A stretch of 14,096 bases of DNA from an uncultured Lachnospiraceae bacterium (GTDB taxonomy: Bacteria; Bacillota; Clostridia; Lachnospirales; Lachnospiraceae), in assembly GCA_964643295.1 (NCBI GenBank), contig CAZXSN010000073.1:1-14096 (forward strand). Reading direction: 5' to 3'. The notes under the pieces are model-generated. The model was not told where the DNA came from. It was given only the letters and a program-made list of their open reading frames with translations, and made no database searches. Positions 1,500 through 12,464 of the stretch are shown one piece after another. A program made the position numbers and the translations under genes. Position 1 is the first letter of the stretch. Each line of letters starts with the position of its first letter.

Positions 1500-2822
1500 T
1501 TATTTCTCCCTGGGAGGAATCGGCGGAATCTCCGGGAAGAGACTTTTTAGCGTCTGCACACTGCCCGCTTTCTCCCACTGACTCATCCCTTCCGTCCACA
1601 CCAGGGAATCTTTTTGAAGCTGTCCGGATGATACCATACTTTTCAAAGTTTCCAAGTCAAAAGGACCTGTCGGCTGTTCACCCGCAGCCACGTAAAAGGT
1701 CACCCTGGGAATTGGCGGCGGAACACTTCCCGTCTGCCCAGGAACAGGACCTCCCCGCATCACAGAATTCATGGAACCGGCGATGTTCTGACCGATGGCC
1801 CCGCCAACCGCCATGCTGGCCATCCAGGCCGCCATGTTGAACCCGTGCTGATCTCCAAGGTTAACGTTCCCGGAACCGTTCTCCCCCATTTTGCCAAGGG
1901 CCTGTGCACCCGCGATCCCTACTTCCGTCTGCTTTTCCACCTGATAGGCACCGAGATTGGACGACTGTGTCTGCTTGTGCAGGGAGTACTGTCCCTCTTC
2001 CCGCTGAATGCGCAGCCGCTCCACGTAATCCTGCGTCTCCGCCTGTATCTTCGCCCCGGTGACATCTCTGCTGACGCTCATGAGGTTCCGGTAGCCTTCA
2101 CTGGTTTTATCCAGTTCGATCGCCCCGATGTCCACACCGGATACTTCCACGCCGAAGTCCTCCCGCAGCCGGTCTTTTAGGTACAGTTCCGAGGCATCGT
2201 TGATCATCGCCGTCTTGGTCTCGATCTGAACAAGGGGAATATCATACTCTGCCGGGGCGTTCGCCACCGTATCCTTGACATATCTGGTCACCACGTCTCT
2301 GATCTGCCGCTGAAAATCCGCTGGCTGAAAAGTCGTAAGCCTGTGCAGCTTTACGAACTGCCTGTAATCGGCGATCCGAAAAGTCACGGTTCCCCTTACT
2401 GCTGTCGGCACCCCGAAATCCGCGAACCTGGGATCATAGATATCAAAAAAGGGAACTGCAAACTTCACCTGGATAACCTGGGCGAGATTGATAAAGTAAA
2501 CTTCCGCCTGAAAAGGAGTCCCTCCCTCATAGGCAAGTCCCACAAGACTGGCCAAAACCGGCAGGTTCCCGGTTTTGAGGATCTCATCAAACGGTCCGAC
2601 AATAAAATCCTCTGAAGTTTGGCTGCCGCGCCCATATACGAATACTGCCACTTCCCCATCCTTCACGCGCAGGGAAGATCCCCACCTGATCGCGTTCTCC
2701 CGCTCTTCACTGCCCTCTGCAACCCCCGGCGGATGCCACTTCCAGATCAGATACGAAGGCTCATCACAGCGGATCACGTCCATAAATCCGCCGTCTTTTT
2801 GTTTCCTGTCAAAAAGCCCCAT
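1500..2822 (-). CDS. SPFH/band-7 family protein (Band_7_1 / YdjI-like) with a C-terminal DUF4339 (GYF-like) domain
   Basis: This is a 440-aa ORF in the supplied track. Its ATG at 2822 follows GGAGGTG at a 7-nt spacing. The N-terminus (MGLFDRKQKDGGFMDVIRCDEPSYLIWKWHP...) and the following roughly 250 aa fit the stomatin/flotillin-like SPFH 'virion core protein' family. A G/M/A-rich low-complexity linker follows. The C-terminal segment GPFDLETLKSMVSSGQLQKDSLVWTEGMSQWEKAGSVQTLKSLF matches the DUF4339 pattern. The gap to the downstream gene is 45 bp, so the two are probably co-transcribed. Confidence 0.85.
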   Translation of the reverse strand: MGLFDRKQKDGGFMDVIRCDEPSYLIWKWHPPGVAEGSEERENAIRWGSSLRVKDGEVAVFVYGRGSQTSEDFIVGPFDEILKTGNLPVLASLVGLAYEGGTPFQAEVYFINLAQVIQVKFAVPFFDIYDPRFADFGVPTAVRGTVTFRIADYRQFVKLHRLTTFQPADFQRQIRDVVTRYVKDTVANAPAEYDIPLVQIETKTAMINDASELYLKDRLREDFGVEVSGVDIGAIELDKTSEGYRNLMSVSRDVTGAKIQAETQDYVERLRIQREEGQYSLHKQTQSSNLGAYQVEKQTEVGIAGAQALGKMGENGSGNVNLGDQHGFNMAAWMASMAVGGAIGQNIAGSMNSVMRGGPVPGQTGSVPPPIPRVTFYVAAGEQPTGPFDLETLKSMVSSGQLQKDSLVWTEGMSQWEKAGSVQTLKSLFPEIPPIPPREK

Positions 2823-2977: not shown

Positions 2978-3838
2978 TTACCTGTTCGAATGATGCGAAT
3001 TCTTCACTCCTTTGTAGGAATTGACCGCTCCGACGATCAGAACGATCACTCCGCACAGCTGAACGACGGAGCCATTCTCAAACGCGAACGACAGCAGGAC
3101 TGTGAATAATCCGCTCCCGATACACACAGCATAATCGATGAGGGACGCTCCTCTCCTGCCAAGAGAGGCAGCGGAAGCGATCAGAACAATACAGGCCGCC
3201 GGTTCCATCAAAGAGGAATTGCCGCCCGACCGGTCCACAAACGCCGCTGAGACGAGAAGCAGGATACCCGCACAGAAGACAATGTTTCGCAGCACGGTTT
3301 CCAGCGTAAACTTGTGTCTTTGCCGCTGTTTTTCTGAGGCGATATTGTTCTGGCAGTTTTCATAAATGCTCTGAATTTTGACAAAATCCTCATCCGACTG
3401 AAAAAGCAGTCTGGCCTTCTGGTAGGCCTGCTCAAATTTTGCCAGCCACGCCTCGTAGATATCCCGCTCATCTTCACCCAGAATGTTTGAGGATGCCAGG
3501 ATCATGAACTCCAGGATATCCTCCTTCGCATTGGGAATGGGGAAGCTGCGGATCATCTCATCTTTTTCCTCCACCGTTGTCCGCCGGTTTAACTCGCGGT
3601 AAAATTCCTGAGCGGAGAATGTGGCCTCCGCTCCCCTCAACTCATAGCCGCAGGCAGGGCAGCTGCCGACAAAAGAAGAAATCAGCTCCCCGCAGTTCGG
3701 ACATTTATAGAGCTTCCCTTCATAGACGGTCTCCCGCTGGGAGGTCGGTTTTTTATGCGGAAGGACACGCTGTCCGCAGTTTGTACAGAATTTCGCCCCT
3801 TCCGGGAGTTTCTGTCCGCAGTTCGTGCAATATGCCAT
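2978..3838 (-). CDS. Double zinc-ribbon membrane protein (YdjG-like N-terminus with C-terminal TM helices)
   Basis: The track ORF 2978..3856 starts at a GTG. I prefer the ATG at 3838 (MAYCTNCGQ...), which has GGAGGAGG 9 nt upstream. The protein has two zinc-ribbon pairs (CTNCG...CTNCG, then CPNCG...CPACG). A cytoplasmic helical region follows. Two to three hydrophobic helices sit at the C-terminus (IVFCAGILLLVSAAF, ACIVLIASAASL, LCGVIVLIVGAV). Confidence 0.8.
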   Translation of the reverse strand: MAYCTNCGQKLPEGAKFCTNCGQRVLPHKKPTSQRETVYEGKLYKCPNCGELISSFVGSCPACGYELRGAEATFSAQEFYRELNRRTTVEEKDEMIRSFPIPNAKEDILEFMILASSNILGEDERDIYEAWLAKFEQAYQKARLLFQSDEDFVKIQSIYENCQNNIASEKQRQRHKFTLETVLRNIVFCAGILLLVSAAFVDRSGGNSSLMEPAACIVLIASAASLGRRGASLIDYAVCIGSGLFTVLLSFAFENGSVVQLCGVIVLIVGAVNSYKGVKNSHHSNR

Positions 3839-3862
3839 GATGAATACCTCCTCCACACAAAG

Positions 3863-4081
3863 TCAGTCTTCTTCCCGCCGATAAGCATCGCAGATATCCC
3901 CAATGTTACAGTCCAGGTAATCGCATATTCTTAACAGCACGGAAAGAGCGACCTCCTCATTATGACGCAGTTTGGTCATCGTACCGGTGGCTATGTTGAG
4001 ATCCTTTCTCAGTGTCGCAGGAGATATTTCTTTTTCGATGAGCAGTATCCAAAGCTTTTTGTAGCTTATCCGCATACTCAT
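3863..4081 (-). CDS. Small XRE/Cro-C1-type helix-turn-helix transcriptional regulator (72 aa)
   Basis: The ATG at 4081 has AAGGAGG 8 nt upstream. The sequence SYKKLWILLIEKEISPATLRKDLNIATGTMTKLRHNEEVALSVLLRICDYLDCNIGDICDAY is typical of short HTH_26/XRE regulators of about 70 aa. Its stop lies 6 nt before the next gene's GTG codon (24 nt before my preferred ATG). Confidence 0.8.
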   Translation of the reverse strand: MSMRISYKKLWILLIEKEISPATLRKDLNIATGTMTKLRHNEEVALSVLLRICDYLDCNIGDICDAYRREED

Positions 4082-4092
4082 ATCTGCAGCCT

Positions 4093-4137
4093 CCTTAAGA
4101 TAAGCTGCAAATCGATCACATACCGCTTACCCTTAAG
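4093..4137. promoter_or_regulatory. Imperfect inverted repeat (CCTTAAGATAAGC ... GCTTACCCTTAAG) between the -10 element and the RBS of the XRE gene; candidate autoregulatory operator
   Basis: Half-sites lie at 4093-4105 and 4125-4137, with an ATCGAT palindrome at the centre. The right half overlaps the proposed -10 element. Confidence 0.3.
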
Positions 4138-4165
4138 CATAACACAGGATATAGCAATTTGTCAA
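4136..4165 (-). promoter_or_regulatory. Putative sigma-A promoter for the XRE regulator operon (TTGACA, 18-nt spacer, TATGCT)
   Basis: On the minus strand, TTGACA is the reverse complement of 4160-4165 and TATGCT the reverse complement of 4136-4141. The -35 element is perfect. The -10 element keeps T1, A2 and T6. It sits about 55 nt upstream of the ATG. Confidence 0.35.
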
Positions 4166-4832
4166 TGCGATTTGCTGTCATTTTGAGTAAATTTCGCAAC
4201 TTCTTGCGGTATCTGTTATAGTCTTAATCTCTAACTATCTATTTTGAAGCCCAGCCTGGCCATCCGATTGCTGCAGACTCATTGTCTGTTTCATGAATCT
4301 GCTTCCCTGCAAAGCAGGTCTGCTCTGCTCTAAGCCACGCTAAAGAGCCAGGAAGCCAGGCGGTTTACAAGTCTTTTCTTCCCTTAACTATAGCAGGATC
4401 AGAAGAATTTTGCATTAAAAATCATGGGAAATTTGCAAATTTGCGATGAATTGATTCAAGAACTTACGATCTTTTCGCATCCGGTAAACGTTTCCGTCCG
4501 GACTGTCTGCGGTGCCTGCCCCTTACGGCAAAGACCTCTGCCCTTTCGATTTAAGATCACCTGGTTTCCTGATCCGGGTTTTGCTCTTCAGCAGCGGTCT
4601 GAGAACCGGTCTTTTCTTTTCATCCGGTCAGAAGCATTCGATTCTCAGGCCTTCCAATTGGGGAAGGGGAGATCTTTCTGTCATGCCGATAAATCTACAT
4701 ATCAGCATATATCGATGTGAGCGCAGATTCCTCCCTGTTCTGCGGACTGTCTGGCCTTCAAACCCTCCGGAGAAGGGTTTCCCATGGAGAAACCAGATAC
4801 TGCAAAGGCACAGGGACAAAGGCACAGGGACG

Positions 4833-4871
4833 AAAAAATGGTGCCGCTCTTACGGCACCATCTGAGTTTTT
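4833..4871 (-). terminator. Rho-independent terminator downstream of the SH3b-repeat gene; possibly bidirectional
   Basis: The stem is GGTGCCG (4840-4846) paired with CGGCACC (4853-4859), with loop CTCTTA. On the minus strand the stem is followed directly by ATTTTTT. On the plus strand a T5 run follows 7 nt after the stem. It lies about 110 bp past the stop at 4971. Confidence 0.7.
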
Positions 4872-4970
4872 GTGTCTGCGTTTTCTGTCTGTATTTTCTT
4901 TCTTTGTTGTTTTGCGGCTCTTTGGTAAGGCTTGTAAGGCACACGGCCTTCCATTTCGGGAGACACGAGG

Positions 4971-6401
4971 TTAATACAGATAGTTGCTGTTTACGTATCC
5001 GTATTTCTGAAGCGTGGGCGCATAGACATACCAGTACGTGGAATCGGAAGTATCCTGTACCTGCACCGTCTCTCCGGTATAGAGCTTGCCGATCTCATTC
5101 GAATAGTCGTAGGCTTTCGCGTTGCGAAGCGCCAGATAGCCGCTCTCCACGCGGACCGTCTTTGTCACACCCGAAACGGAAGAGGAGGATGTTGAAACCA
5201 GATAGTTTCTGTTCACATAGCCGGACTTCCCGAGCTTGGAGGAATACACATACCAGTAGTCAGAATCCGACTTATCCTGGACCTGTACCGTATCTCCGGT
5301 GTAGAGCTTGCCAATCTCATTCTCGTATTCGAATGCCTTTGCCGTCCGCAGCGCCAGATAGCCGCTCTCCACTCTCACGGTCCAGGTTTCTCCTGAAACC
5401 GGGGCACTGGCTAAAGCGACCAGATAATTCTTATTCACGTAACCGGACTTATTCAGCGACGGCGCGTAGACATACCAGTAGGTATCATCCGACTTATCCT
5501 GGACCTGCACCGTATCGCCGGTGTAGAGTTCCCCGATTTCATTCTTATATTCGAAGGCCTTGGCCGTTCGAAGCGCCAGATAACCGCTGTCCACTTTCAC
5601 AGACCAGGTCTCCCCGGATGCTGACACACCAGTCGGGGCGATCAGATAATTCCGGTTTACATAGCCGGATTTGTTCAGCGATGGCGCATAGACATACCAG
5701 TAAGTATCATCTGACGTATCCTGAACCTGCACCGTATCCCCGGTGTAGAGCTTGCCGATCTCATTTTCATATTCGAAAGCCTTGGCCGTTCGAAGTGCCA
5801 GATAGCCGCTGTCCACTTTCACGGTCCAGCCATAGGACGACGGCGCAATCAGATAATTCCGGTTTACATACCCGGATTTCCCAAGCGACGGGGCGTAGAC
5901 ATACCAGTAGGTGGAATCGGAAGTATCCTGTACCTGCACCGTATCGCCCGTATAGAGTTCTCCGATCTCATTCTCATATTCGAAGGCTTTGGCCGTTCGA
6001 AGCGCCAGATAACCGCTGTCCACCTTCACGGTCCAGTACCCGGAAGTGTTCGTCGTCACAGGCTTCGAGGAAGAGGAGGAGGATACCGCCTTTAAATAGT
6101 CTTTGTTGACATAGCCGTATTTATCCAGCTTGGAAGAATAGACATACCAGTAGTCGGAATCCGTAGAATCCAGCACTTCCACCGTATCGCCCGTATAGAG
6201 CTTCCCGATCTCATTATAATAATCGAAGGCTTTCGCTGTCCGAAGCGCCAGATAGCCTTCCGTGACCTGCACCCGGTAGGTGGAACCGGCAGCCAGACAG
6301 GTTTTGCCAGCAGGCAGCAGAGTAACCGCCAGGGTAATCATAAACAGCAGCAGCCACCGGGATAAAGTCTTTTTCCCGGAACCAGTTTCATATCTTTCCA
6401 T
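4971..6401 (-). CDS. Secreted protein made of six tandem bacterial SH3 (SH3b/SH3_3) domains
   Basis: The track ORF 4971..6566 overlaps the upstream gene. I prefer the ATG at 6401 (MERYETGSGKK...), which has AGGGAGGA 6-7 nt upstream and sits 13 nt after the upstream stop. The N-terminus is a signal peptide (WLLLFMITLAVTLLPAGKTCLAAG). Six repeats of about 68 aa follow, each with GYLALRTAKAF-Y-NEIG-LYTGDTV-VQD-SD--YWYVY----K-GYVN-NYL. This is the SH3b pattern. Confidence 0.85.
   Translation of the reverse strand: MERYETGSGKKTLSRWLLLFMITLAVTLLPAGKTCLAAGSTYRVQVTEGYLALRTAKAFDYYNEIGKLYTGDTVEVLDSTDSDYWYVYSSKLDKYGYVNKDYLKAVSSSSSSKPVTTNTSGYWTVKVDSGYLALRTAKAFEYENEIGELYTGDTVQVQDTSDSTYWYVYAPSLGKSGYVNRNYLIAPSSYGWTVKVDSGYLALRTAKAFEYENEIGKLYTGDTVQVQDTSDDTYWYVYAPSLNKSGYVNRNYLIAPTGVSASGETWSVKVDSGYLALRTAKAFEYKNEIGELYTGDTVQVQDKSDDTYWYVYAPSLNKSGYVNKNYLVALASAPVSGETWTVRVESGYLALRTAKAFEYENEIGKLYTGDTVQVQDKSDSDYWYVYSSKLGKSGYVNRNYLVSTSSSSVSGVTKTVRVESGYLALRNAKAYDYSNEIGKLYTGETVQVQDTSDSTYWYVYAPTLQKYGYVNSNYLY
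4974..6281. repeat. Six tandem, highly similar coding repeats of about 204-210 bp (the SH3b units)
   Basis: Long near-identical nucleotide blocks recur with this period. One example is ccgatctcattctcatattcgaaggcYttggccgttcgaagYgccagataRccgctgtccac. Protein-level identity between units is above 80%. Confidence 0.85.
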
Positions 6402-6414
6402 CACAATTCCTCCC

Positions 6415-7428
6415 TTATCCGCAGTAGTAATCGTAAATCTGTCTGCTGAGTGACGCAATCGTCGACTGAGCACTTCCCACATCGGAGAGATTTTCCGACA
6501 TGAAGACAATGACCAGATCGTTGGCTGAATCATAGAGAATCCCCGCATCGTTTTCCACGTCGTCAAGTTCCCCGGTCTTGTTGGCGACGGACACGCCCTC
6601 CGGCATCTGCGCCGGGATCTTGTTTCGCCGCTGCTGCGCCTTTAACAGGGAATACATGGCATCCGCATAAGGATATTCTTCCACATTTTCGTAGTAGATC
6701 TCCTGCAGAAAATGCCCGCAGTCATTCACCGAAGTATAGTTGTCATCATACTCATTGCTGTGCAGAAGCAGCCGTCCCATATGCGACTGGAAATATCCGT
6801 GGTTCATGCAGAACTCATTCACCGCCGCCATCCCGGCATCCGTATCTCCGCCTCCCAGACAGCTCACCAGCTGATTCGCGGCTTCGTTGTCGCTGACCGT
6901 GATCATGGAATAGAGCCAGGAATCCAAAGATGCCGGATCATACTGAGCAGCCAGATCCTCATAAGATACATAGACCGCCCCCATGATGTAAAGCTTGATC
7001 AGGCTGGCGGCCTGCATACGCCGATCGTCGATGGCGGATTCGGTCCCCTTCACGAGGTCGCTTACATAGACAGCCCACTCTCCGTTTGAGCCGGGCAAGA
7101 GTCCCCTGATCTGAGACAGAAGGCTTTCCAGTTCCTCATCCACCGGCAGTTCCTGGCCTTCCGTCTGGCCTTCTGTCATTTCTTCCCCGCTTTCTGCCTC
7201 ACTTACTTCCTCAGTCGAGGCAGCCTCACTTTCCTCCCCGACCGTTTCCGGAGGAGCCTCAGGATGGTCTAAAGCCGCATCCGTCTCCTCCTCCCCGGCA
7301 TTCGTTTCGGTCACCGGATCCGCCTCTGGCTTCCGCTCCTCCGCGAAACTTACGCTGCAGCTCCCCAAGGTAAAGAGCAAAGTAAGCGTCAGGATCAGCA
7401 GATGCCTCCTCCGCAGCCGATCTTTCAT
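6415..7428 (-). CDS. Class-A beta-lactamase-fold serine hydrolase lipoprotein with an acidic E/T-rich linker
   Basis: This is a 337-aa ORF. Its ATG at 7428 follows AGGGGGAAGG. The signal sequence has a lipobox (LLFTLGSC). The three class-A beta-lactamase motifs are present: SxxK (ASLIK), SDN (VSDNEAAN) and KTG (ANKTG). Its stop lies 13 nt before the SH3b gene start, so the two genes likely form an operon. Confidence 0.8.
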   Translation of the reverse strand: MKDRLRRRHLLILTLTLLFTLGSCSVSFAEERKPEADPVTETNAGEEETDAALDHPEAPPETVGEESEAASTEEVSEAESGEEMTEGQTEGQELPVDEELESLLSQIRGLLPGSNGEWAVYVSDLVKGTESAIDDRRMQAASLIKLYIMGAVYVSYEDLAAQYDPASLDSWLYSMITVSDNEAANQLVSCLGGGDTDAGMAAVNEFCMNHGYFQSHMGRLLLHSNEYDDNYTSVNDCGHFLQEIYYENVEEYPYADAMYSLLKAQQRRNKIPAQMPEGVSVANKTGELDDVENDAGILYDSANDLVIVFMSENLSDVGSAQSTIASLSRQIYDYYCG

Positions 7429-7613: not shown

Positions 7614-8081
7614 TCAGTCCAGATAGGCCGTATAGTGCATATCCTCCGGAGTGAGCGTATCCAGGACCTTTAAGTACTCCGCTGCTTCTCTTCTGCACCC
7701 TTCCAGGTCATGGTCGAGATAGTTCCCGCACTCTTCCTCTTTGGCTCCCGGAATCTCGCCTTCAAACGTGGTCATGGCCCGATACGATTCCCGAATACAG
7801 TCCAGCACTTCCTCATTGCTCAAGCCTCTGGTCAGAAAGTAGACACCGGTCCTGCAGCCCATGGGTCCGACATAAATGATGCCGTCCTTATATTTGCCGT
7901 TGCGGGCAAAGGTCGCGAAGAGATGCTCAATCGTGTGGCTCACTGCGGTGGAGAGGTAATCTCCGTGATTGGGTTCCTTCATGCGCACGTCCCAGGTCAT
8001 GATATCGTCATCCTGCCGGGACAGATACACGCCTCTTTTCAACTTTGTGTGATCAATACTGAAACTTGGAATTCTCTGCAT
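7614..8081 (-). CDS. luxS: S-ribosylhomocysteine lyase (autoinducer-2 synthase) LuxS
   Basis: The track ORF starts at 8276. I prefer the ATG at 8081 (MQRIPSFSIDHTKL...), which has AGGGAGG 7 nt upstream. That start gives 155 aa, the typical LuxS length. The HTIEH metal-binding motif and the PMGCRTG motif are present. A consensus promoter lies inside the track's N-terminal extension, which argues against the longer ORF. Confidence 0.9.
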   Translation of the reverse strand: MQRIPSFSIDHTKLKRGVYLSRQDDDIMTWDVRMKEPNHGDYLSTAVSHTIEHLFATFARNGKYKDGIIYVGPMGCRTGVYFLTRGLSNEEVLDCIRESYRAMTTFEGEIPGAKEEECGNYLDHDLEGCRREAAEYLKVLDTLTPEDMHYTAYLD

Positions 8082-8144: not shown

Positions 8145-8173
8145 ATTATACAGCAATCCGCCCCGTTTGCCAA
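8145..8173 (-). promoter_or_regulatory. Sigma-A promoter for luxS (TTGGCA, 17-nt spacer, TATAAT)
   Basis: On the minus strand, TTGGCA is the reverse complement of 8168-8173 and a perfect TATAAT is the reverse complement of 8145-8150. The spacer is 17 nt. The leader is about 57 nt to the ATG at 8081. Confidence 0.5.
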
Positions 8174-8371: not shown

Positions 8372-8405
8372 AAAAAAAGTCCCGGACGGATCATCCATCC
8401 AGGAC
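8372..8405 (-). terminator. Rho-independent terminator after the cell-wall hydrolase gene
   Basis: The minus-strand RNA reads GUCCUGGA, an 11-nt loop, UCCGGGAC (an 8-bp stem with one G.U pair), then UUUUUUU. The T-run is the complement of the A-run at 8372-8378. It lies about 45 nt past the stop at 8451. Confidence 0.6.
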
Positions 8406-8450: not shown

Positions 8451-9701
8451 TCATCTGGCCCACGACTGGAAGAACACATGATCCCCGAGTTTCACATACT
8501 TGGATGTCAGATGCAGACGCTGAAACGCGGGCTGCGTCATGAAGAAAAGATACCCTTTCAGGCTCATCTTCTTTCCTTCCACATCAATCGTATATTTATC
8601 CTTTCGGTACATTTTCAGAACCTTGGCCGCTGCCTGCCTGCAGCTTTCCGTGATCAGGCTCTGATTGTTCAGCGCTCTGGTTAAGGCGCCGTCAAACGAG
8701 GGTGTGAACTGGGTGGTCTGATAAACCACTTCCTTCAGCTTCATCGGAAAACTGGTGCTGCGCATGCGGTTGGTGATCACCAGACCGACACCGAGCTGCC
8801 CGTAGTAAGGCTGATTGCCCGCCTCACAGTAAATGATGGCAGAAAGCAGGGTTTCGTCATCCACCTTGGGATCCGTATAATAGGTGCTCTGTACGGAAAC
8901 ATTGGGCTTACCCGTCTCCGTGGCCTCATCGGCTTTCTTTCCCTTGCCGTCCGAGCCAAACAGGTAGGTGACGCCGTCGATTTCCCTGGATTCATTTTCC
9001 AGGCGGTCCCCGGTTTCGGGATCAAAGTAATAGTAAGATCCGTCGACTTTCTGGAAGCCGGTGAGACGCTTTCCATCCGCTCCCACGTAGCGGTCTCCCA
9101 CCCAGGTACTGGTTAAGTTATGTCCTTCCTCCCCGATGAAATATCCGTTCACCCAGACGTTCGTGCCGCGAACGCCGTTGGGCTTGAAATAATACTTCTT
9201 TCCGTCCACTGAAACCAGCGCGTTCGCGACCATGTGGCCGTTCGCCTTCAGGAAGTAGTAGGTCTTCCCGTTAAACTCATGCATGCCGGTAACCATCGCG
9301 CCGCTTATGTCAAACCCGAACTTGTCCTCCCCGATCTTTACGATGCAGTCTTTATAAAGAGATCCTTTCTTGGAAGCGTAATACCGTTTCGATCCGCTGA
9401 CGATCCACTTGGACTTGAGCACCTTCCCCGTCTTCTCCACGTAGTAGCGGTCGCTGCCCACCGTCAGCCAGCCCTTATAGCGTCCTCCGTTCTTCTTATA
9501 GCAGTAGGTGGTTTTTCCGTTCTGGACAAAACCGACGTTTTGCTCTGCAAACCACTGACTCTCCATCTTCTTCCCGGAACTGTTGTACCAGGTATAGGAA
9601 CCGGCAGTATTTTTCACCCATGCTGCGTCGGCCTTCACCGGCATCAACAATATCAGAATCAGGAAAAGCAGCGCTGGCGCAAAAAACGTCTTTCGTCTCA
9701 T
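8451..9701 (-). CDS. Secreted cell-wall hydrolase: signal peptide, YYF-type cell-wall-binding repeats, C-terminal SleB-like (Hydrolase_2) domain
   Basis: This is a 416-aa ORF. Its ATG at 9701 follows GGAGGGA at 7 nt. The signal peptide reads MRRKTFFAPALLFLILILLMPVKADA. Repeated G-x-YY(F/A/V) units occur (KRYYASKKG, KTYYFLKANG, KKYYFKPNG, SYYYFDPETG). The C-terminal ETLLSAIIYCEAGNQPYYGQLGVGLVITNRM...TQFTP matches the SleB/CwlJ hydrolase domain. Confidence 0.85.
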   Translation of the reverse strand: MRRKTFFAPALLFLILILLMPVKADAAWVKNTAGSYTWYNSSGKKMESQWFAEQNVGFVQNGKTTYCYKKNGGRYKGWLTVGSDRYYVEKTGKVLKSKWIVSGSKRYYASKKGSLYKDCIVKIGEDKFGFDISGAMVTGMHEFNGKTYYFLKANGHMVANALVSVDGKKYYFKPNGVRGTNVWVNGYFIGEEGHNLTSTWVGDRYVGADGKRLTGFQKVDGSYYYFDPETGDRLENESREIDGVTYLFGSDGKGKKADEATETGKPNVSVQSTYYTDPKVDDETLLSAIIYCEAGNQPYYGQLGVGLVITNRMRSTSFPMKLKEVVYQTTQFTPSFDGALTRALNNQSLITESCRQAAAKVLKMYRKDKYTIDVEGKKMSLKGYLFFMTQPAFQRLHLTSKYVKLGDHVFFQSWAR

Positions 9702-12393: not shown

Positions 12394-12464
12394 AGCAGGT
12401 GAGGGGAATCGAACCCCCCTCTCCAGCTTGGGAAGCTGGCGTTCTACCGATGAACTACACCTGC
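12394..12464 (-). tRNA. tRNA-Gly (anticodon CCC)
   Basis: The minus strand reads GCAGGTG-TA-GTTCATCGGTAGAAC-G-CCAGC-TTCCCAA-GCTGG-AGAGG-GGGGG-TTCGATT-CCCCT-CACCTGC-T. This gives a cloverleaf with a 7-bp acceptor stem, a T-loop TTCGATT and the anticodon loop U-CCC-AA. No CCA is encoded. Confidence 0.85.

Follow-up and report, generated by a model that had tools for sequence, protein, structure and literature searches.

A conserved gene pair in Lachnospiraceae encoding a class A beta-lactamase-like serine hydrolase without Glu166 and a secreted SH3-repeat protein

The window analysed here, a stretch of 14,096 nt from a contig of an uncultured Lachnospiraceae bacterium, carries on its minus strand two neighbouring genes for a serine hydrolase and an SH3-repeat protein. 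In the ORF listing, the hydrolase gene (6415..7428; 337 aa) starts with an ATG at 7428, preceded by the Shine-Dalgarno-like stretch GGGGGAAGG, and ends with the stop codon TAA at 6415-6417. Its product is class-A-beta-lactamase-like by Pfam and PDB sequence matches (4ewf, 4hes and PBP-A, 2j7v), with a match to the Pfam HMM Beta-lactamase2 (PF13354) at E=4.8e-33 and 114.7 bits (cutoff 22). Inspection of the N-terminus MKDRLRRRHLLILTLTLLFTLGSC led to a lipobox pattern ([LVI][ASTVIG][GAS]C), L-G-S-C, at residues 21-24, and a signal peptide with this PS51257-type pattern, ending in Cys24, was assigned to 7357..7428. An alternative SPase-I site, SFA/EE, aligns with the ..YA/AE sites of homologues. 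Residues 25-95 (7144..7356), which include the motif HPEAPPE, form an acidic linker (24 D+E versus 2 K+R, pI 4.05), predicted to be disordered from pLDDT values below 50 for residues 21-93 of the AF2 model. The catalytic domain (residues 96-337; 6418..7143) was delimited by hhalign to TEM-1, by the alignment columns of 140 family representatives and by AF2 with Foldseek. Within it, S142-L-I-K145 (SxxK; 6994-7005), S179-D-N181 (SDN; 6886-6894) and K284-T-G286 (KTG; 6571-6579) align with S70/K73, S130-N132 and K234-G236 of TEM-1 respectively. The three motifs, the lipobox and the long acidic linker (about 70 residues) reported in the first-pass annotation were thus all recovered at their positions on the minus strand.

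The SH3-repeat gene (4971..6401, minus strand; 476 aa) begins 13 nt past the hydrolase gene, as had also been noted: the hydrolase stop is followed by the spacer GGGAGGAATTGTG (6402..6414), which contains the ribosome-binding site of the second gene, and by an ATG at 6401. The ORF could be extended to a TTG at 6566, but would then overlap the hydrolase gene, and from the GGGAGG ribosome-binding site and the signal peptide the ATG at 6401 is the credible start. The signal peptide (approximately residues 1-37; 6291-6401) precedes six modules of about 67 residues with the common pattern GYLALR...YWYVY...GYVN.NYL, placed by motif positions and AF2 strands at residues 40-106 (6084..6284), 121-187 (5841..6041), 190-256 (5634..5834), 264-330 (5412..5612), 338-404 (5190..5390) and 412-476 (4974..5168), the last one closing the protein with ...NYLY. 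Modules three to five were additionally supported by a tandem DNA repeat under the modules with a period of 222/207. SH3_3 matched the protein with 81.2 bits (cutoff 27), SH3_1 and SH3_2 also exceeded their Pfam cutoffs, and AF2 led to six all-beta, beta-barrel modules with pLDDT 75-90. That the second protein consists of nothing but a signal peptide and six SH3b modules was therefore confirmed by Pfam, repeat structure and model, and the same layout, with three to six modules, was found in all 751 homologues. A Foldseek search with the model gave the SH3b array of Bacillus subtilis YrvJ as best match, further matches being the Psm endolysin and SH3b domains of the NlpC/P60 type. PDB matches by sequence were restricted to eukaryotic SH3 domains (Fyn, p47phox, Src), and in the alignment to these the canonical ligand-binding Pro is replaced by Asn. 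Non-covalent attachment to the cell wall would be the most likely role of the modules. Neither an anchor nor a recognisable docking element is present in the protein. A 441-aa plus-strand ORF over the repeats (4784-6109) lacks a Pfam match and most likely represents an antisense artefact.

A hairpin resembling an intrinsic terminator, ATGGTGCCG-TAAGAG-CGGCACCAT with a T run behind it, lies 109 nt past the SH3 stop (4833..4861, minus strand); the search had called it on the plus strand, and direct inspection of the sequence gave the minus-strand reading and the T tract. The gap 4082-4970 contained neither a credible Rfam match nor a convincing ORF. Upstream of the hydrolase gene, luxS is located at a distance of 185 nt, and as neither a terminator nor a consensus promoter was found in this gap, transcription of the pair could also begin at luxS. 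As a member of the unit, luxS was rejected, since it is near none of 80 related loci (0/80) and the adjacency is thus local only. A phage or prophage lysin cassette was rejected as well, because no PHROG matches the hydrolase, the PHROG matches of the SH3 protein are weak and of unknown function, and integrase or phage genes are missing from the window.

In class A beta-lactamases Glu166 is the general base of the omega loop and positions the deacylating water. It had been suggested that the enzyme is not a true beta-lactamase, and inspection of this position in the hydrolase agrees: hhalign against TEM-1 (probability 73%) placed R219 on R164, L221 (6766-6768) on E166 and N225 on N170, and phmmer paired L221 with Leu158 of PBP-A, as seen from the wild-type and L158E entries. 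After clustering at 50% identity, the 140 family representatives carry L, M, F, I or V in column 166 and never E, just as PBP-A has Leu158 and LRA-5 has Val166, and the equivalents of S70, K73, S130, N132, K234, T235 and G236 are invariant or nearly so. The acylation machinery of the hydrolase is hence complete on alignment. With the NCBIfam model bla_class_A (NF033103) it reached 52.6 bits (cutoff 200), and all named bla families stayed far under their cutoffs. A canonical class A beta-lactamase was consequently rejected, given Leu221, the low scores with NCBIfam models and the absence of Glu166 throughout the family. For the hydrolase, AF2 gave a model of moderate quality (mean pLDDT 63, low around residues 213-217 and 285-292) that is too weak at the omega loop and KTG for assigning residues, so that the assignment of the Glu166 position rests on the sequence and profile alignments. 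A Foldseek search with this moderate model gave LRA-5 as best match, and also PER, PSE-4, 4ewf and PBP-A; matches to class A enzymes, LRA-5 and PBP-A had a probability of 1.00 and TM values of about 0.6-0.7. Because complete acylation machinery is combined with Leu in place of the deacylating Glu166, the hydrolase is, on sequence grounds, most likely a penicillin-binding DD-peptidase of the PBP-A kind (carboxypeptidase and/or endopeptidase) and not an antibiotic-destroying enzyme.

Conservation of the pair was analysed in the 80 related genome loci by placing their hydrolases on an NJ tree, which split cleanly into two clades, A and B. Of the clade A loci, 34/37 have an SH3 gene as the immediate downstream neighbour in the same orientation; for clade B the figure is 0/43. 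In clade A it is the sole neighbour kept across at least six differing flanking contexts, and the adjacency persists down to 50-55% protein identity. Conversely, the hydrolase gene was found directly upstream (60-170 nt) in 33/39 metagenome loci with the closest SH3 proteins, and the proposed co-conservation of the two genes therefore holds in both directions. The nearest loci come from rabbit-gut Lachnospiraceae MAGs (63-74% identity), from which the host is predicted to be a gut bacterium of the Blautia group, and the two-gene unit is kept across Blautia-group genomes. Members of the SH3-repeat family were also seen apart from the hydrolase, namely in an abundant human-gut lineage, where a solitary gene is flanked by a dnaJ-like and a LysR gene, beside an alpha/beta-hydrolase gene in an Atopobiaceae MAG, and in another case with different neighbours; it is thus not a dedicated subunit family. 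Literature searches on the pair or the hydrolase subfamily returned nothing specific.

For the hydrolase family, 3,873 matches at E<=1e-3 were obtained among representatives of clusters at 50% identity; Blautia genomes have several paralogues each, and relatives are annotated as 'beta-lactamase class A' at source. In 56 long family representatives the catalytic domain is accompanied by Amidase_3 (12), SH3_3 (11) or choline-binding repeats (3), further partners being M23, Hydrolase_2, PG_binding_1, M15_4, 3D, NlpC/P60 and lysozyme domains. Among the related loci, L015 and L026 carry GH3 (NagZ-like) fusions, whilst in L080 the fusion is to Amidase_3. As relatives are fused to wall enzymes and wall-binding domains, a wall substrate is suggested for the hydrolase, and both the peptidoglycan substrate and the DD-peptidase chemistry are putative assignments. 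The expectation that SH3b domains are normally fused to the hydrolase they target is echoed within the family by the 11/56 fusions with SH3_3. In these fusions, SH3_3 sits on the N-terminal side of the catalytic domain and matches the HMM of the window's modules weakly (E ~1e-4 to 1e-2), which rules out a simple fission of an SH3-hydrolase fusion and limits a Rosetta-stone argument to the level of domain families.

The N-termini differ between the clades. Among the clade B paralogues, all devoid of an SH3 partner, 41/43 show a strongly hydrophobic and uncleaved-looking N-terminal anchor, and the signal peptides of clade A are cleavable or of the lipobox type. A lipobox-like Cys is present in about 10 of 38 clade A proteins (including L023, L035, L062, L049, L066, L019, L024 and L005), the other clade A hydrolases have SPase-I type sites, and the closest orthologues of the hydrolase (L001-L003) lack a lipobox, while L028 has LAGC. 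From these patterns the predicted lipobox anchor is variable by lineage. Since some clade A hydrolases have both a lipobox and an SH3 partner, the latter cannot be explained simply as replacing an anchor.

On balance we favour, with modest confidence, that the pair consists of a wall-acting DD-peptidase-like enzyme and a co-expressed SH3 partner. The hydrolase, with a class A beta-lactamase/PBP-A fold, would be exported and either lipid-anchored or released, and with Ser142 as nucleophile, Lys145, Ser179-Asp-Asn and Lys284-Thr-Gly as acylation set it would trim stem peptides of peptidoglycan as a carboxypeptidase and/or endopeptidase. The SH3 gene would be translated from the ribosome-binding site in the spacer, and its secreted six-module product, sitting on the wall, would retain or concentrate the hydrolase there, or present the substrate. 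Contact between the two proteins and targeting of the hydrolase by the SH3 modules are what we infer from this arrangement. Electrostatic docking, in which the acidic linker would be attracted to a basic SH3 protein, was ruled out, as both proteins are acidic (hydrolase, pI 4.1; SH3 protein, pI 4.9).

A possible but doubtful alternative is that both proteins are co-transcribed and never touch, being independent secreted wall proteins, a stem-peptide trimmer and a structural or adhesive SH3-repeat protein, which are needed together. This would agree with the stand-alone, monocistronic SH3-repeat genes of other lineages, with an SH3 protein that has its own signal peptide and is devoid of a recognisable docking element, with the acidity of both partners and with the lipobox anchors of several clade A hydrolases. 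However, adjacency and co-orientation that survive at least six rearranged neighbourhoods, and identities as low as 50-55%, are hard to explain without functional dependence; moreover, in relatives this catalytic domain is found joined to SH3_3 or other wall-binding modules, and the paralogue clade without a partner has a membrane anchor instead.

In a bolder version, unlikely in our estimation, the SH3 protein might be a multivalent extracellular scaffold that docks the hydrolase by eukaryote-like SH3-PxxP recognition of the proline-rich HPE(A/P)PPE or EPxP in its linker while gripping peptidoglycan, giving a non-covalent and stoichiometrically tunable 'wall peptidase complex'; if true, this would be a bacterial housekeeping equivalent of phage PlyC that relies on SH3-PxxP recognition. 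That the modules form a multivalent scaffold for several hydrolase molecules by binding the proline-rich HPE(A/P)PPE or EPxP of the linker in a eukaryote-like SH3-PxxP manner, instead of or besides peptidoglycan, is decidedly unlikely. By sequence, the modules do match only eukaryotic SH3 domains in the PDB and exceed the cutoffs of SH3_1, SH3_2 and SH3_3 alike, the linker in the window has HPEAPPE, and HPE.PP occurs in 8/36 clade A versus 0/43 clade B linkers and EP.P in 17/36 versus 6/43, counts which ignore phylogeny. Yet many SH3-paired hydrolases (among them L011, L013, L034 and L076) have short linkers without a proline motif, linkers rich in Pro and Glu are common in secreted Gram-positive proteins, and the canonical ligand-binding Pro of SH3 domains is Asn in the modules.

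It is very unlikely that the hydrolase is a determinant of beta-lactam resistance, either as a weak beta-lactamase or as a penicillin-binding 'sponge', with an SH3 protein that merely holds it at the wall. The class A fold with all three conserved motifs, Foldseek matches that are mostly class A beta-lactamases and the annotation at source would fit such a role, but Glu166 is found nowhere in the family, scores with the NCBIfam class A models lie far under their cutoffs, fusions to peptidoglycan amidase and GH3 domains occur in paralogues, and the presence of multiple copies in Blautia genomes fits housekeeping wall enzymes; the behaviour of LRA-5 and of PBP-A L158E, described below, argues in the same direction. 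An exported bacteriolysin against the walls of competitors, with the SH3 array as target-recognition subunit, is barely credible: two secreted proteins, the precedent of split subunits in PlyC and a repeat number that differs by species (3-6), as expected of a specificity module, are set against ordinary chromosomal contexts without immunity gene, mobile-element or phage context, against the lack of a PHROG match for the hydrolase and against the fact that, to our knowledge, DD-peptidases of this type are not known as lysins.

The pair is built from known parts, and the two proteins probably represent a cell-wall-trimming enzyme and its helper. For gut metagenomes, in which 'beta-lactamase class A' is the routine annotation of the hydrolase family, the uniform lack of Glu166 and the ties to wall-binding and wall-cleaving modules argue against counting such genes in the resistome; more probably, they encode DD-peptidases with which abundant commensals remodel peptidoglycan. 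The split, fused and membrane-anchored versions offer a natural three-way comparison of how Gram-positives hold a wall enzyme at its substrate, and if a complex forms, the pair would be a cellular, non-phage two-subunit wall hydrolase.

Among characterized proteins, PBP-A (Tll2115) from Thermosynechococcus elongatus is a DD-carboxypeptidase/endopeptidase that binds penicillin and has been described as restricted to cyanobacteria (PMC11189452). Its structures (PDB 2j7v and 2j8y; L158E mutant, 2j9o) share with the hydrolase the class A-like fold, SxxK, SDN and KTG, Leu at the position of Glu166 and a shortened omega loop. The L158E exchange led to a 90-fold gain, still orders of magnitude under real beta-lactamases (PMC11189452). 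Identity to PBP-A is only about 22-24% (phmmer E=5.8e-5), and in contrast to the hydrolase it has an N-terminal domain of its own and lacks a gene for an SH3 partner. The metagenomic class A 'precursor' LRA-5 (PDB 8eo5-8eo7) has Val166 and biologically insignificant beta-lactamase activity until Glu is introduced (PMC12777564). As the best structural match it shares the three motifs and a hydrophobic residue at 166, but differs in its soil origin, in an identity of about 20% and in having no known wall-related context or partner. Closer to the hydrolase than PBP-A are 4ewf (Sphaerobacter thermophilus) and 4hes (Veillonella parvula), the best PDB matches by sequence (E=2e-12 and 1.7e-7), which share KTG...(v)-x-ND-(v/a)G after the KTG strand and have Met at the aligned position 166; both are single-domain proteins from structural genomics with no SH3 partner known.

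For the SH3 protein, Acp of Clostridium perfringens, in which ten SH3b domains are joined to a catalytic domain in one polypeptide (PMC8470621), and YrvJ of B. subtilis are comparable bacterial SH3 arrays, there used in wall binding. The YrvJ array is fused to Amidase_3, whereas the array described here is a separate gene product. The split of catalysis and wall binding over two polypeptides had been called unusual; this judgement stands, although the arrangement is not unprecedented, phage PlyC being the precedent. In PlyC, a wall-binding octamer of PlyCB associates with the catalytic subunit PlyCA. As in the adjacent and co-oriented genes of the pair, PlyCA and PlyCB are separate products of one operon, but their folds (CHAP/glycosidase and the PlyCB fold) are unrelated to those found here, their origin is a phage, and PlyC is a proven complex while the pair is known from its genes.

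The hydrolase and SH3-repeat genes lie on the minus strand, as does every gene of the window. The hydrolase ORF (6415-7428, minus strand; 337 aa) matches Pfam PF13354 (Beta-lactamase2, E=4.8e-33), and its stop codon TAA (6415-6417) is separated by GGGAGGAATTGTG, the 13-nt gap already seen in the first-pass annotation, from the ATG at 6401 that opens the SH3-repeat ORF (476 aa, end at 4971, minus strand). Mechanically, the longest ORF for the SH3 gene begins with a TTG at 6566 within the hydrolase gene; the ATG at 6401 is credible as the true start, since a ribosome-binding site precedes it and a signal peptide follows directly. A 9-bp GC-rich hairpin and T run at 4833-4861, 109 nt past the SH3 stop codon, indicate that the two-gene unit ends there. 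Directly upstream of the hydrolase is luxS (S-ribosylhomocysteinase, PF02664; 7614-8276, minus strand), which is preceded by a sigma-70-like promoter (11/12; 8145-8173) and probably starts at a Met near 8081, as the Pfam match begins at residue 68. Scanning of the 185 nt between the luxS end and the hydrolase start for a terminator and a consensus sigma-70 promoter gave neither; a TTGTAT-15 nt-TATAAA element is visible ahead of the hydrolase, with a spacing outside the rule of the scan, and the pair may be transcribed from its own weak promoter or by read-through from luxS.

Two genes upstream of the pair, a secreted protein of 416 aa (8451-9701, minus strand; strong terminator after it at 8379-8405) combines choline-binding/glucan-binding-type repeats with a SleB-like Hydrolase_2 domain at its C-terminus. 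It has matches among phage endolysin PHROGs, and the organism thus also uses the conventional fused design of binding repeats and wall hydrolase. Further genes of the window are a tRNA-Gly (anticodon CCC; 12394-12464, minus strand) between GH31 glycosidase and patatin-like phospholipase genes, a Cro/C1-type HTH gene (3863-4081, minus strand) followed after 7 nt by a gene for a double zinc-ribbon membrane protein (2978-3856, minus strand), and, next in order, one for an SPFH/Band-7 protein (1500-2822, minus strand) that ends in a GYF_2 domain. The terminator of the operon and the HTH-gene promoter are separated by ~640 nt (4190-4830) with GC down to about 0.45, in which neither a convincing ORF nor an Rfam match was found; this stretch could be a decayed gene.

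The SxxK, SDN and KTG motifs noticed at first reading are present as S142-L-I-K145, S179-D-N181 and K284-T-G286, and a profile-profile alignment to TEM-1, built from 18 hydrolase family members, placed them on S70/K73, S130-N132 and K234-G236. In the same alignment R219 and N225 correspond to R164 and N170, and the omega-loop glutamate, named in the first-pass annotation as the residue separating a beta-lactamase from a PBP-like DD-peptidase, is replaced: Leu221 occupies the position of Glu166. A phmmer comparison with PBP-A (Thermosynechococcus elongatus Tll2115) gave the same register, with Leu221 opposite the position at which the wild-type structure 2j7v and the L158E structure 2j9o differ. 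A library of 1.84 billion proteins, clustered at 50% identity, supplied the catalytic domains of 140 family representatives. In these the nucleophile Ser, the Lys, Ser130, N132 and the K-T-G are invariant or nearly so, and the 166 column shows L (99) or M (27), otherwise F, I or V, and in no case Glu. With the NCBIfam class A model the hydrolase scored 52.6 bits against a cutoff of 200. A functional class A beta-lactamase was rejected on this score and on Leu221, two of its defining tests.

The hydrolase is a member of the PF13354 superfamily and on paper resembles PBP-A and LRA-5, a metagenomic class A 'precursor'. Its closest PDB sequences are the uncharacterised class-A-like proteins 4ewf (Sphaerobacter thermophilus) and 4hes (Veillonella parvula), then PBP-A, and the top structural match of its model, a moderate one with a mean pLDDT of 63, is LRA-5. 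PBP-A likewise carries Leu at the Glu166 position and acts as a DD-carboxypeptidase/endopeptidase with specificity for amidated muropeptides (PMC11189452); an identity of ~23% does not suffice to assign the hydrolase to the cyanobacterial PBP-A family itself. LRA-5 has a natural Val166, also non-Glu, and no deacylating water, and its beta-lactamase activity is biologically insignificant until Glu is introduced (PMC12777564). Leu221, the family-wide absence of Glu, the low NCBIfam score and the kinship with PBP-A and LRA-5 therefore support, at the level of sequence logic, the initial suggestion that the enzyme is a DD-peptidase of PBP type and not a true beta-lactamase.

The second protein is a member of the bacterial SH3 clan (SH3_3, 81 bits, cutoff 27) and consists, as first described, of a signal peptide and six modules of ~67 residues with the signature GYLALR..KA(F/Y).Y.NEIG.LYTGDTV.V.D.SD..YWYVY...L.K.GYVN.NYL, reflected in the DNA as a tandem repeat with a period of 207-222. 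Its AF2 model shows six all-beta modules (pLDDT 75-90) joined by low-confidence linkers, and in Foldseek it best matched the array of SH3b domains in B. subtilis YrvJ, followed by SH3b domains from NlpC/P60 enzymes and from the Psm endolysin and by eukaryotic tandem SH3 proteins. Antisense to the repeats lies an Arg/Ser/Pro-rich ORF of 441 aa (4784-6109, plus strand) without a Pfam match, in all likelihood a by-product of the way codons are arranged in the repeat.

Relatives were sought in one genome per species (185,579 species), which gave 235 loci; the best 80, nearly all from Blautia, Marvinbryantia or unnamed Lachnospiraceae, were fetched and their neighbours read by tblastn with the window proteins. 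An SH3-repeat gene lies directly downstream of the hydrolase, on the same strand, in 37 of these 80 best loci. No other window gene was found near the hydrolase except for a weak SleB-like match (32% identity) in one locus (L016), and the adjacency to luxS is absent in all 80. A neighbour-joining tree of the catalytic domains split cleanly into clade A, comprising the window protein and 37 loci with an SH3 neighbour in 34, and clade B, with an SH3 neighbour in none of 43 loci. Two of the three clade-A loci lacking this neighbour (L005, L015 and L026) encode an N-terminal GH3 (NagZ-like) glycosidase fused to the clade-A catalytic domain (L015, hydrolase ORF end 6723; L026, end 6241), linking the hydrolase family to muropeptide processing. 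When the ORFs of clade-A loci were clustered, only the SH3 gene was common to at least six unrelated flanking contexts, indicating that the pair moves as a unit. Carriers of the pair include cultured Blautia such as B. glucerasea and B. caecimuris (L035, L066). The SH3 genes encode three to six modules, usually four, so that the six of the window are the maximum seen.

In the reverse test, metagenome contigs were scanned with an alignment of SH3-repeat proteins. Among the 39 loci whose SH3 protein is nearest that of the window (60-71% identity) the hydrolase was present 60-170 nt upstream in 33, compared with none of the 41 that share about 52-64% identity with it (54% in most cases) and come chiefly from one abundant human-gut lineage in which the SH3 gene stands alone between dnaJ-like and LysR genes; another stand-alone SH3-repeat gene has unrelated neighbours. 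Conservation of the gene pair, by which the first-pass annotation had proposed to judge its reading, was thus seen from both sides, and the dependence is asymmetric: in the hydrolase lineage an SH3-repeat gene nearly always accompanies the enzyme, whereas SH3-repeat proteins can exist without the hydrolase.

Some further arrangements were observed. In one Blautia sublineage (L017, L018, L019, L021, L023, L024, L027, L028, L035, L038, L046, L047, L049, L062, L066) a second, divergently oriented hydrolase paralogue lies directly upstream of the hydrolase-SH3 pair. Downstream of the membrane-anchored clade-B paralogue there is consistently a convergent gene of ~410 aa without a Pfam match (e.g. 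L045, 6889-8118, minus strand; L037, 6867-8099, minus strand), which is a second conserved neighbourhood. In an Atopobiaceae MAG (L081/L082, 5001-6907) a 350-aa SH3-repeat protein of the same family as that of the window, again without the class-A-like hydrolase, is followed after 39 nt by an alpha/beta-hydrolase (Abhydrolase_1), which may be another pairing of SH3 repeats with a serine hydrolase.

SH3b domains had been described at first reading as usually fused to their hydrolase, and such fusions were indeed found when 56 representatives of at least 400 aa among the 150 best were searched with Pfam: SH3_3 precedes the catalytic domain in 11, Amidase_3 is fused in 12 and choline-binding repeats in three, with single cases of M23, Hydrolase_2, PG_binding_1, Peptidase_M15_4, 3D, NlpC/P60 and phage lysozyme. 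Within clade B, Amidase_3 (L080) and DUF285 surface repeats (L042) are fused. As relatives are so consistently joined to peptidoglycan hydrolases or wall-binding modules, this domain-level Rosetta-stone argument suggests that the catalytic domain acts on peptidoglycan and benefits from a wall-binding module. An origin of the split pair by fission of an SH3-hydrolase fusion was rejected, since the SH3_3 domains of the fusions show no more than weak similarity to the window modules and stand in a different domain order; the split design is thus a solution reached independently.

The N-terminus of the window hydrolase, MKDRLRRRHLLILTLTLLFTLGSC, satisfies the lipobox rule by inspection, and residues 25-95 are extremely acidic (D+E 24 vs K+R 2) and predicted to be disordered. 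The lipobox and long acidic linker of the first-pass annotation are hence both present, but L001-L003, the closest orthologues, have no lipobox. In another sublineage a lipobox Cys of canonical or near-canonical form recurs (L028, LAGC; L023, L035, L062, L049, L066, L019, L024), and SPase-I-type ..CYA|AE sites are found in most of the remaining clade-A proteins. For the window hydrolase a lipid anchor is plausible, as a trait that varies across the lineage. In 41 of 43 clade-B proteins, which lack an SH3 partner, the N-terminus is strongly hydrophobic (mean Kyte-Doolittle >=2.5 over 19 residues) with no cleavage motif after it and has the look of a signal anchor, whereas clade-A signal peptides are less hydrophobic and cleavable or of lipobox type. 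Each lineage would thus have some retention device. Between signal peptide or anchor and catalytic domain, a short conserved motif (E/Q)G(T/M)(L/I)SP(S/P)S..S..(S)VFG occurs in 25/36 clade-A and 42/43 clade-B proteins (e.g. L011, L013, L034, L020, L045) and is missing from the window hydrolase and its nearest relatives; the motif may serve for processing, for glycosylation or as a docking peptide.

On balance we lean towards a wall-acting, DD-peptidase-like enzyme with a co-expressed wall-binding SH3 partner. The hydrolase would be exported and lipid-tethered or released on its long acidic tether, and Ser142 would acylate on D-Ala-D-Ala-type stem-peptide bonds, trimming or cleaving them; beta-lactams would inhibit the enzyme and not be destroyed by it. 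The co-translated SH3-repeat protein, secreted without an anchor of its own, would bind the wall multivalently and either hold the hydrolase there or condition its substrate. The main rival, functional co-expression of the two proteins without physical interaction, is possible though rather unlikely in our estimate. Docking of the linker to the SH3 modules via a proline motif appears improbable, because many paired orthologues lack such a motif, even though all PDB matches of the modules by sequence are to SH3 domains of eukaryotes (Fyn, p47phox, Src) and the modules lie above the Pfam cutoffs for SH3_1 and SH3_2. The window linker contains HPEAPPE; HPE.PP occurs in 8/36 clade-A vs 0/43 clade-B linkers and EP.P in 17/36 vs 6/43 (Fisher p=0.002, ignoring kinship). 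A resistance determinant, in the case of the hydrolase, and a bacteriolysin, in that of the pair, are minor alternatives to a wall-acting enzyme with its SH3 partner.

In the searchable literature no account was found of a class-A-like hydrolase of cellular origin whose SH3-repeat partner is a protein of its own. The pair is a real, conserved two-gene unit of abundant gut commensals; its components are familiar ones, and it helps to correct 'beta-lactamase' annotations. It is reminiscent of PlyC, in which catalytic and wall-binding functions also reside on separate polypeptides; PlyC, however, is a phage lysin, whereas here a cellular class-A-like hydrolase is combined with an SH3-repeat partner.
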